This document shows positions 47,417-62,380 of a DNA stretch of 64,000 nt, one piece after another. Positions within the stretch are counted from its first letter, which is position 1. The number at the start of each line of letters is the position of its first letter. Source of the stretch: an uncultured Acidobacteriaceae bacterium (GTDB lineage Bacteria > Acidobacteriota > Terriglobia > Terriglobales > Acidobacteriaceae); NCBI GenBank assembly GCA_963761405.1, contig CAVXHH010000010.1, forward strand, positions 39,215-103,214. The letters run 5' to 3'. The translations under genes were made by a program, and so were the position numbers. The notes under the pieces are model-generated. The model made no database searches. It had not been told where the DNA came from and was given only the letters and a program-made list of their open reading frames with translations.

Positions 47417-47633
47417 TGTCTCCGGAATAGGCCGGATTGCCAACACGAATGAAAATCCTTTAGATCCGTCGTCCGACGGCTTCGCCGACCCGTGAGAGAT
47501 GAATCGGGAGATTTGTCTGTTGTTACGAAGCCCGACTTCAGGTTGCGGAAAAACTCGACGAGATGAGAGGTTCGGAGCAGATGGAAAAGGAGCAGTCCCG
47601 AAGGGACGGCTGAAAGTCAGACCTGTGCAGATT

Positions 47634-48400
47634 GTGCGCTGAGCAGCGCGTTGTTCAGGAGGGTTGAAGTCCCTCTGGTTCTCAGATGAGGAGGGCCATA
47701 TCCGAAAGCGGGGGTAATGCCTCGCTGGCCGCAGAGGCGAGATGGTTCTGCGGAGGGCAGGGTGTCCATTGTGAGATGGAATCCGAAGGGCATGAGGAGA
47801 AGTACCGGGCCGTAATCGAGGGGGCAGCCCCGACGATGAACCGGTCGGCCAAAGGTGGGGCAAGGTCGAGCCTGCAATTTGGAGGCGAAGGCGTTCTCAT
47901 TCACCCACCGCACCAAGGTGTTTGCGGACGGCACGGTACGGAAGAACAGCGCGTGACCTCAGGAGGACTGACAGTGTTTCCGGTTGGCATCGGAGTAAGC
48001 GGACCTATAAGCGAGAGCGAAATGGCGAGCGATGCGCTGTCAGTAGTCGGACGGCTGAAAAGTACCAGAAGCGTGGTGAAAGCCATGTGACCGGGCAACC
48101 GGCGACAGAAATGGATCGGGGAAGTCAGCCGACGAAGATGCTGGGAAGAGAGAGGAAGACCAATGAGTAAGGGCGCGGAGGAGGATCAGTTCCTTAAGTG
48201 ATATACCCGTACGCTTCGCCCGAGGAAACTGTTGGACGGATCGACCCAACGGGGGCAAGCGAAGGACCATTCCTTTCTTCTCCTGCTTCCCGGAAGAGTG
48301 AGCCTTCGTGAAAGCCGTGTGCGGGAAAACCGCATGCACGGTTTGAGCGGCGGACGGTGGCTAGCATCTGGGCAACCCGATGCGCCACCTCCGACCCGAC
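47634..48400 (+). mobile_element. group II intron ribozyme without an intron-encoded protein (ORF-less, 767 nt)
   Basis: 5' GUGCG (47634-47638). Domain-I element GGGUGUCCAUUGUGAGAUGGAAUCCGAAGG (47760-47789). Near-consensus domain V AAGCCGUGUGCGGGAAAACCGCAUGCACGGUUU (48312-48344). Domain VI hairpin 48349-48396 with bulged A 48394, and 3' end ...CCGAC at 48400. The domain IV position holds only a 12-codon ORF (48163-48201). Confidence 0.75.
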
Positions 48401-48404
48401 AGCT

Positions 48405-48900
48405 CTTCTGAAGAAGTTTGCTGGCCGTGTTTTTGGGTGGAAGCCCCCTGCTTTAGCAGGGGGGCAACGCTTTAGCGTTGCCGGAAGAAATCCGACCTCT
48501 CTATCCTGCGCTTTAGCGCTGGGCTTGTATCAGGGCACGACTGCCTCGCCGCAGCGAGCGTCAGCCGTGCCGCAAGATCGAAAAAATGATCTGGGCTTTA
48601 CAGGCTGCGGAAAAACTCCTGTTTTGTATCAGGGCACGACTGCCTCGCCGCAGCGATCGTTAGTCGTGCCGTAAATAATTGAGAATACGTTGGGCTTTAG
48701 CCCCTGCTGGATCCTCTTGACCTCAACGTCCTGGGCTATTTTCAGCCGTCCCTGCGGGACTCGCCCCATTTCCTAAAATGTAGAATTTCTCGGCCGTCGT
48801 AAGCTGTTGATTGTAAACCCACAATGGGCTTTTCCCGCTTTTCTCGCTTTTTTCGCATACCTCGCTTACCTCTCTTTTCTCGCACATAGGCCTATTTTTT
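48405..48900. repeat. REP-like mosaic repeat cluster 2
   Basis: Three GC-TTTA-GC hairpins (48444-48463, 48464-48481, 48508-48519). Two TGTATCAGGGCACG...CGTGCC units (about 48526-48572 and 48625-48671). GGGCTTTACAGGCTGCGGAAAAA at 48593-48615. TTTTCAGCCGTCCCTGCGGGAC at 48739-48760. TTTTCTCGC-type direct repeats at about 48833-48895. Confidence 0.75.
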
Positions 48901-51345: not shown

Positions 51346-51912
51346 TTAGTCTGTCGAGTTTTTCCGTAGCCTGTTAAGCCCCCGCGGCCCTCCCGAATCA
51401 GCCGTTACAGTTCTCTGGGAGCTCGAATGAATCGTATATCGACTACCCTCCGGGATAGGCTGTGCGGCAATAAAATGGCGCTGGCCTTTGTTGACTGCGG
51501 AGATACATCTGCACTGTTCTGCGTCGTCTTGATTACTTTCAGCTATGCGGAGAGCGCACAGCCTTTGCGTTAGCCGCCCGCAATCCAGCTCCGGCTGTTC
51601 TAGATTCGTACACGCCTCTGGCGATGTCCACCCAAGCGGCGCCGTCAATCGCGAAGGCAGGTGGCCCGTTGCGGCCAGGACCCCGCCATAGTCTTAGCCA
51701 CGAGAAAACCAGGGCTCCAGATCTCCGGGAAGAAACAAACTCCCGTTTCATCCCTCGTGGGTCGGCATAGGGAAAAAGGAGTCGTCCCAGAGGGGCGGCT
51801 GAAAGTAGCCAGGATGAAATCCTGGGCAACCACGGCACGTCAGTGCCGTGGGTTGCCCAGTAGGAAGCGGCAAAAATTGTGAACCCGCTCTAAACTATTC
51901 ACAGTAACCGAC

Positions 51913-61489: not shown

Positions 61490-62380
61490 GCGGTTTTTGT
61501 ATCAGGACACGACGGCCTCGCCGCCGCGAGCGTTTCCGGCCCTCGGATGCGGAAGCGCGGCGCTGCCCGGCTCTAAAGATGTTACTAAAGACACCTCTTG
61601 CACCCGCCCCAAATCCGTACTACCGTGAAATTAGGAAGTTGTACGTCAGCGCCGTCTCACCACGTCCCTGCTTGGCCTTGCACCGATCGCTCGCCCGTGC
61701 ATCCGCCCCCAGTCTCCGGGAACGCATCAGCCTCTGCAGGCAGGATGCCCCGGTGTTTCGCAAACAGTAGTGTGACCTTCGAAGTGACAGATACGTCTGT
61801 CCGCGGCATTCCGCGCCCGCCCCACGCCCCGAATGGGCGCCTGCGGAGAGCGGAAATCACCGTGCGAGCAGGGTACGCTCAGTGCGTCCTCTTGATGGAG
61901 CAGTTTTGACAACTTGGAACACTCTCACGCCGGCGCCGGTGTTCTCCCTGTCGTCGGCTGTCAGAAAAGTCGTTCGCGCCGGGCCGCCGAACGGCTCCGG
62001 CAAGCTCGACCGCGATCGGCTCCTTGCGCAAGCGATCGCGGCCCTGGGTGTTTTCATTTGCAAATCTTGAGCACCTTGCCCCATCCCACTTGAGCACCTT
62101 GCCCGCTTTTCGCTCTTTTGGGTTTTTTTCGATCCTCAGCGCATTTTGCTTTGTATCAGGGCACAACTTTACAAGCTGCGGAAAAGCCCGGTTGAGTCCC
62201 GGGAGGGGGGGCTTAGTGCGTTAGTGCGTACTTTTTAGCCATTTCCCGTCGGCAGAGCCAGACTGTTCCAGCCCACTCGTGGTGTCCGCCCCACAGCTCC
62301 AAGCTAATTTGGACAGCTCTGATTTTCAGCCGTCCCTTCGGGACTGGATTGGGGAACCGTACGCCTCGACTCCGAAAATG
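61490..62380. repeat. REP-like mosaic repeat cluster 4 (with unique spacers)
   Basis: TGTATCAGGACACG... (61498). Direct repeat CTTGAGCACCTTGCCC x2 (62066-62081, 62089-62104). TGTATCAGGGCAC plus CTTTACAAGCTGCGGAAAAG (about 62152-62190). TTAGTGCG x2. TTTTCAGCCGTCCCTTCGGGAC (62323-62344). Confidence 0.65.

Follow-up and report, generated by a model that had tools for sequence, protein, structure and literature searches.

The 767-nt element at positions 47634-48400 of the window (the whole 64,000-nt stretch of DNA analysed, C10:39215-103214 of a 6.09-Mb, 14-contig assembly, G000, which is 89% complete) is a group II intron, predicted to be self-splicing and lacking an open reading frame (ORF), and all six of its full-length copies in this genome are inserted at one and the same bond in the terminal inverted repeat (TIR) of a multicopy MITE-like element. 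The history that we consider likely runs as follows. An intron lineage with an endonuclease-less protein would have altered its EBS1 at two positions, from ACUAUGG to AAUUUGG, and this change would have redirected homing, previously into the 5′ region of the protein gene of another intron, to CCAAATT^A, a site 17 nt inside the TIR. The RT/maturase ORF would have been lost in a derivative through one deletion of about 1.2 kb, and this ORF-less derivative would have retrohomed into pre-existing MITE ends in both orientations, the protein presumably being supplied in trans by a full-length sibling. The site at 62301-62322 would be one of roughly 45 targets not yet hit.

The features of the window are the following, each with its strand.
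47595..47616, plus strand: REP-like hairpin unit (13-nt hairpin and GGCTGAAAG), which flanks the MITE and lies outside the intron site
47617..47633, plus strand: 5′ exon (IBS region), the outer 17 nt of the left-type TIR of the MITE
47634..48400, plus strand: predicted ORF-less group II intron, 767 nt, with a GUGCG start and an AC end
47876..47882, plus strand: EBS1 (AAUUUGG) in a hairpin loop with a covarying closing pair
48276..48298, plus strand: domain IV deletion scar, from comparison with full-length relatives
48310..48400, plus strand: domains V and VI (Rfam RF00029)
48401..48728, plus strand: 3′ exon, the rest of the host MITE, cut off before the right-hand TIR (blastn against a full MITE)
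48740..48760, minus strand: hairpin unit within an uninterrupted REP doublet, a putative empty MITE target
51784..51804, plus strand: hairpin unit within an uninterrupted REP doublet, likewise a putative empty MITE target
62294..62300, minus strand: further part of the right-type MITE end, which together with 62301-62305 comes to 12 nt, after which similarity stops
62301..62322, minus strand: putative unoccupied homing site, made up of the 17-nt TIR (62306-62322) and AGCTT (62301-62305)
62323..62344, minus strand: REP-like hairpin unit beside the empty site

The assignment to group II introns draws on several features. The element has a GUGYG-type start (GUGCG at 47634) and carries domains V and VI, whose match to RF00029 scores 43.6 bits against a gathering score of 40 and stops exactly at 48400; this match and an AY 3′ end were found in all six copies. 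The fold is supported by covariation, with compensatory changes at 21 of the 178 predicted pairs of the consensus and few pairs broken, the minimum free energy of the intron has a z-score of −5.9, and EBS1 pairs with IBS1. The Rfam D1-D4 class models gave no match to the intron even at E ≤ 10. Both ends are also fixed independently, since filled and empty sites differ by exactly 767 nt; the ends proposed in an earlier note on this DNA, 47634 and 48400, are thereby upheld genome-wide.

That note had compared the intron site with a second locus, reading the reverse complement of 62296-62331 as its uninterrupted form. The reading is correct, with the junction between 62306 and 62305, and over the stretch quoted there the joined exons of the occupied site agree with the empty site at 26 of 31 positions. 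Positions 62332-62344, read on the minus strand, give the hairpin GTCCCGAAGGGAC, which recurs at 47595-47607, upstream of the intron. Within the window, the motif of hairpin plus GGCTGAAA has four matches against none in 100 shuffles, and the 18-nt junction motif has one match against 0.04 expected. The two loci had been taken for paralogous copies of one dispersed repeat, and the roughly 50 copies of the 17-mer in the genome bear this out. An insertion at the edge of the repeat had also been considered, as only AGCT is similar on the 3′ side. Similarity does stop after AGCT(T), but the insertion is internal, 17 nt inside the TIR: the stop arises because the 47.6-kb locus is a left-type end and the 62.3-kb locus a right-type solo end, and against empty sites of its own (left) type the 47.6-kb 3′ exon aligns over about 200 nt (>150). 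This exon matches a full MITE copy at query positions 18-218 and 145-248 (blastn), and the 5′ exon at 47617-47633 departs from the left-type consensus at −7 and −4. At 62.3 kb, C10:101508-101535 is a 100% match to MITE query positions 329-356 (blastn), and the MITE end there is probably a solo or truncated right-type end. The empty site at 62301-62322 has the same sequence from −44 to +12 as the occupied sites on C5, C2 and C13.

Judged by its sequence, the dispersed repeat is the TIR of a MITE-like element of about 350 bp. The sequences downstream of the 17-mer form two classes that occur as inverted pairs about 340 bp apart, from which we infer the two ends of one element with a TIR of about 22 nt. 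The element measures 317-450 bp, contains no ORF and is present in about 13 two-ended and many one-ended copies. A 7-bp direct repeat flanks the copy that lies in unique DNA at C13:1450144. Most copies are found inside a REP-like doublet (a hairpin, GGCTGAAAATAGCC and a second hairpin), with CTGAAAA duplicated, and uninterrupted REP doublets, representing empty MITE targets, exist as well, two of them in the window. Some MITE copies carry inverted hairpin flanks on both sides, which simple duplication does not explain. Genome-wide there are 95 REP-like hairpin units, comprising 22 that adjoin this TIR, 20 uninterrupted REP doublets and 53 in other contexts. The hairpin unit is the preferred target of the MITE itself, whose insertion there comes with a 7-bp duplication, and is no part of the intron site. 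The earlier description of the repeat as hairpin, GGCTGAAA and TCAGA must accordingly be revised: the target is more aptly described as the TIR of the MITE-like element, with the hairpin a separate REP-like unit.

Of 67 genomes of the genus, 44 have the TIR motif, at the head of diverse element bodies. An autonomous insertion sequence with the same ends was sought as well: no TIR pair 0.6-4 kb apart and no IS1380-type transposase were found in G000, and no transposase adjoins the TIR motif in 11 loci from relatives. As these searches yielded no autonomous partner, we keep to the cautious name 'MITE-like', which is drawn solely from the TIR, the duplication, the size and the empty sites. The MITE is also modular, as seen throughout the genome and, in the window, at 48623-48728 and 61490-62170. 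Its first ~183 nt often occur alone, and an internal 'tttgtatcagggcac' hairpin unit, at query positions 145-226, is in turn dispersed on its own in about 100 copies. Besides the TIR, the unit of hairpin plus GGCTGAAA precedes at least two other recurrent sequences and seems, from these arrangements, to be a hotspot for several elements.

The nearby hairpin raises the question of class C-like targeting. Class C (IIC) introns insert 3′ of terminator or attC stem-loops and have a short IBS1 and a compact ribozyme. Common features are the endonuclease-less protein of the intron lineage, for which the best solved-structure match (obtained with the protein of a metagenome copy described below) is the GsI-IIC RT, and a hairpin that is often near. 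If the upstream GTCCCGAAGGGAC hairpin were the feature recognised and the shared sequence secondary, its presence at five of six occupied sites would be accounted for, as would the T at −17 of every occupied site, which correlates with the hairpin-type flank. We nevertheless regard such targeting as highly improbable. A gap of 26 nt separates the hairpin from the insertion point downstream of it, 20 of the 42 empty sites have the hairpin as well (Fisher p = 0.19), and it is absent from two of seven independent insertions, C9:109146 and the metagenome copy, so it is no determinant for the intron. Further, the intron has no adjoining 5′ stem-loop, its IBS1 spans 7 nt, its ribozyme is about 740 nt long and no such hairpin is found at the ancestral sites. 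Unlike class C introns, it thus recognises sequence through a 7-bp IBS1, has a dispensable and distant hairpin and possesses a large ribozyme. The earlier suggestion that it is analogous to, yet distinct from, the introns of terminator hairpins is correct in this contrast.

Homing into a multicopy repeat, which the earlier note had raised as a possibility, is well supported by the genomic copies. A blastn search of G000 found the 767-nt element at full length six times, plus a single 3′ fragment. The flanks are alike in all six (...TGTCCAAATT^GTGCGC...CCGAC^AGCT); the insertion bond is always CCAAATT^AGCT, with AGCT(T/C) following the intron, and every copy lies in the repeat, to which EBS1 is complementary. 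The TIR 17-mer ending in CCAAATT occurs about 50 times, with none expected by chance. Scoring the repeat copies for the intron, as had been proposed, yielded six occupied and 42 (strict) or 46 (looser) empty sites of the form ...CCAAATT^AGCTT, and perfect sites such as 62301-62322 are still empty. As the region is a field of mosaic repeats, the similarity at 62.3 kb might have arisen by chance or simply from generic REP repeats, and so have been uninformative about the boundaries. This reading has practically no chance of being right given the abundance of the 17-mer and the exact, single bond that sets filled sites apart from empty ones; the identical junctions of the six copies and the census of empty sites rule it out. 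A scan of one-genome-per-species contigs for the exact junction gave no further match.

Target recognition can probably be traced to EBS1. In the intron this loop reads AAUUUGG and forms seven of seven Watson–Crick pairs with CCAAAUU of the consensus site. Of the pairings that the earlier note had proposed for examination, that of EBS1 with the site does hold and points to the same 5′ boundary, whereas the EBS2 candidate is inconsistent among copies. In duplex scans of domain I against −18 to −8, this putative EBS2, on the 3′ side of a hairpin at intron positions 96-121, lay at homologous positions in G012, G074 and one G000 copy and was missing from the C13 copy, the metagenome copy and G075. 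The same hairpin is remade in the C13 copy by ten clustered substitutions at 1526775-1526790 (intron positions 100-114), giving a different but paired stem, and the relatives from G012, G067, G074 and G011 have an extra 76-nt stem-loop at this point. The base at +1 of the target is A, and a U-A pair between EBS3 and IBS3 is likely.

Relatives of the intron place this pairing in an evolutionary context. We compared 14 full-length copies, and one more with a readable 5′ flank, from G012, G067, G074, G075, G011 and G016; two unpublished genomes, G029 and G036, also matched and were left out of all claims. The full-length relatives, of about 1950-2030 nt, come from five sister genomes, G012, G067, G074, G075 and G011. 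Wherever their loop is readable, EBS1 is ACUAUGG, and their sites read CCAUAGU, CCGUAGU, CUGUAGU or ACGUAGU (YNRTAGT^A), always with A next, the single G011 copy being a poorer match. Two positions thus differ in EBS1 and, correspondingly, two in the target. The canonical site of this ancestral type is located near the 5′ end of the protein gene of another intron, within its 5′ part. A perfect copy of it, ending in CCATAGT^ACC, is present in G000 at C5:499984-500003, near the start of the RT gene of the resident C5 intron, and is unoccupied. Conversely, G012 contains the TIR motif 14 times, yet none of its four introns is located there. Positions further upstream may matter as well: −17 to −13 read TCAGA at all six occupied but only 17 of 42 empty sites (Fisher p = 0.008, the sites being related copies), the TIR variants CCAGA and TCACA are never occupied, and the ancestral site has TCGGA at −17 to −13. 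The TCAGA bias may reflect recognition by the protein or by EBS2.

Comparison with G075 shows that about 1210 nt of domain IV, holding the RT+X ORF, are replaced in the 47634 intron by about 23 nt of filler. The scar is identical in all six G000 copies, none of which has an RT/maturase domain. The protein of the relatives consists of RVT_1 and GIIM domains without an HNH/endonuclease domain. A full-length copy of 1954 nt, with 91% identity to those of G000, is found on the metagenome contig Ga0116226_10141832 and has an intact frame of 440 codons that is 88% identical to the RT+GIIM protein of G075. It has the EBS1 AAUUUGG and sits in the same 17-nt target, with a different 3′ flank and no hairpin; it represents the parental type.

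A helper protein would presumably have acted in trans. A tblastn search found no cognate protein in G000, where the best matches, at 41% and 30% identity, belong to interrupted RT genes. The helper has probably been lost or lies within the unassembled ~10% of the genome. According to reviews, bacterial ORF-less introns nearly always accompany related protein-coding introns (PMC4424553). It seems quite improbable that the intron multiplied through a heterologous protein 30-41% identical, perhaps from resident introns whose split RT genes could be restored by excision; on this reading G000 holds no intact group II RT.

The main competitor to repeated retrohoming is spread at the DNA level, in which an intron-bearing MITE transposed, or recombination or gene conversion acted among MITE ends, with no further retrohoming. 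The repeat flanks do provide homology for conversion, three copies are 100% identical (which could also stem from gene conversion) and no cognate protein is found in G000. Further, the window copy is a mosaic, evidence that recombination or template switching does take place: its domains II-III, at intron positions ~316-570 (47949-48202), resemble the full-length G075 intron, whereas the other five copies resemble the metagenome copy there, EBS1 and the deletion scar being common to all six. This suggests an exchange between intron lineages by one of these two routes. Despite these points, DNA-level spread appears unlikely. Left-type ends are occupied four times and right-type ends twice, the three identical copies are located in both types, and what the two types have in common around the site is limited to 17 nt on the upstream and 5 nt on the downstream side, which makes them a poor substrate for recombination. 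The host MITEs do not group together; every one of them is closest to intron-less MITEs, which argues against passive spread on a transposing MITE. The metagenome insertion at the same 17-mer is independent, and the exact match between EBS1 and site is not needed by a DNA-only route. Retrohoming into pre-existing ends, presumably by an RNA-mediated route, is the reading that we prefer. Relative to the identical three, two further copies have 3 and 11 differences and the window copy has 56; the last is the most divergent of the six and, on this measure, the oldest. Insertion may have been primed at the replication fork. Four to five of the six copies would fit insertion into the lagging-strand template, as judged by a GC skew that is weak on fragmentary contigs.

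The closest precedent, by analogy, is RmInt2, which occupies both inverted repeats of ISRm17, so that targets are doubled and one is always on the lagging-strand template (PMC4615759); RmInt1 is located in ISRm2011-2 (PMC5894124). Like RmInt2, the present lineage has an endonuclease-less protein, every copy is located in an inverted repeat of a transposable element that is present many times and offers two oppositely oriented sites, the +1 base is A, and distal 5′-exon positions appear to matter. Unlike RmInt2, the host in G000 is a non-autonomous MITE-like element for which no transposase was found, and the proliferating form is ORF-less, with no cognate protein. With class D (RmInt1/RmInt2) it shares only the endonuclease-less architecture and the inverted-repeat targeting. 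The ORF-less TeI3-type introns of Thermosynechococcus elongatus are mobilised in trans (PMC2882425; review PMC4424553) and offer a second parallel: an internal ORF deletion followed by several near-identical copies, with target specificity diverged within one lineage. In T. elongatus, however, related protein-coding introns reside in the same genome, whereas none was found in G000, and the T. elongatus targets are not transposon ends. Homing into the ORFs of other group II introns is known from the Methanosarcina twintrons (Dai and Zimmerly 2003, cited in PMC4424553 and PMC5894124). Similarly, the ancestral-type relatives with ACUAUGG lie in the 5′ part of another intron's protein gene; unlike the twintrons, the G000 lineage would have left that niche for the MITE repeat, with the old site kept but unoccupied.

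Introns that home into the inverted repeats of transposons are already described, as are ORF-less introns dependent on help in trans, and the case is a clean example of a known nesting that adds no new principle. Among the papers searched, none joins group II introns, miniature inverted-repeat elements and retrohoming. The interest of the case is that it would represent natural retargeting, in which two base changes in one RNA loop shift the niche of a retroelement from an intron gene to miniature-transposon ends, with the ancestral, parental and ORF-less stages all surviving among sister genomes. In addition, exact intron boundaries are now available for annotation, and the ribozyme sequence inside spurious ORFs and repeat fields of this genus is explained.

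Some observations outside the window concern other group II introns of G000. In four of them, belonging to two lineages, the RT gene is split at the same codons (FFD of RT motif 2): C5:~499.9-504.2k (L055), C13:~1457.2-1461.7k (L056), C2:~694.9-699.5k and C8:~90.7-95.2k. Three of these composite 4.5-kb introns are 100% identical. The insert is 2.72 kb long and 99.96% identical, has, on the opposite strand, a gene for a large serine recombinase of 749 aa and is bounded by an imperfect 8-9-nt direct repeat, so that precise excision would restore the frame; it looks like a recombinase element targeting a conserved RT-gene motif. Finally, C4:107431-107495 (minus strand; L057) is a 5′-truncated relic of an ancestral-type intron, 85% identical, that retains half of domain V and domain VI. 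The sequence that comes after it is similar to the start of the protein gene of another intron, and a TIR-like 17-mer lies 1.7 kb away at C4:105706.
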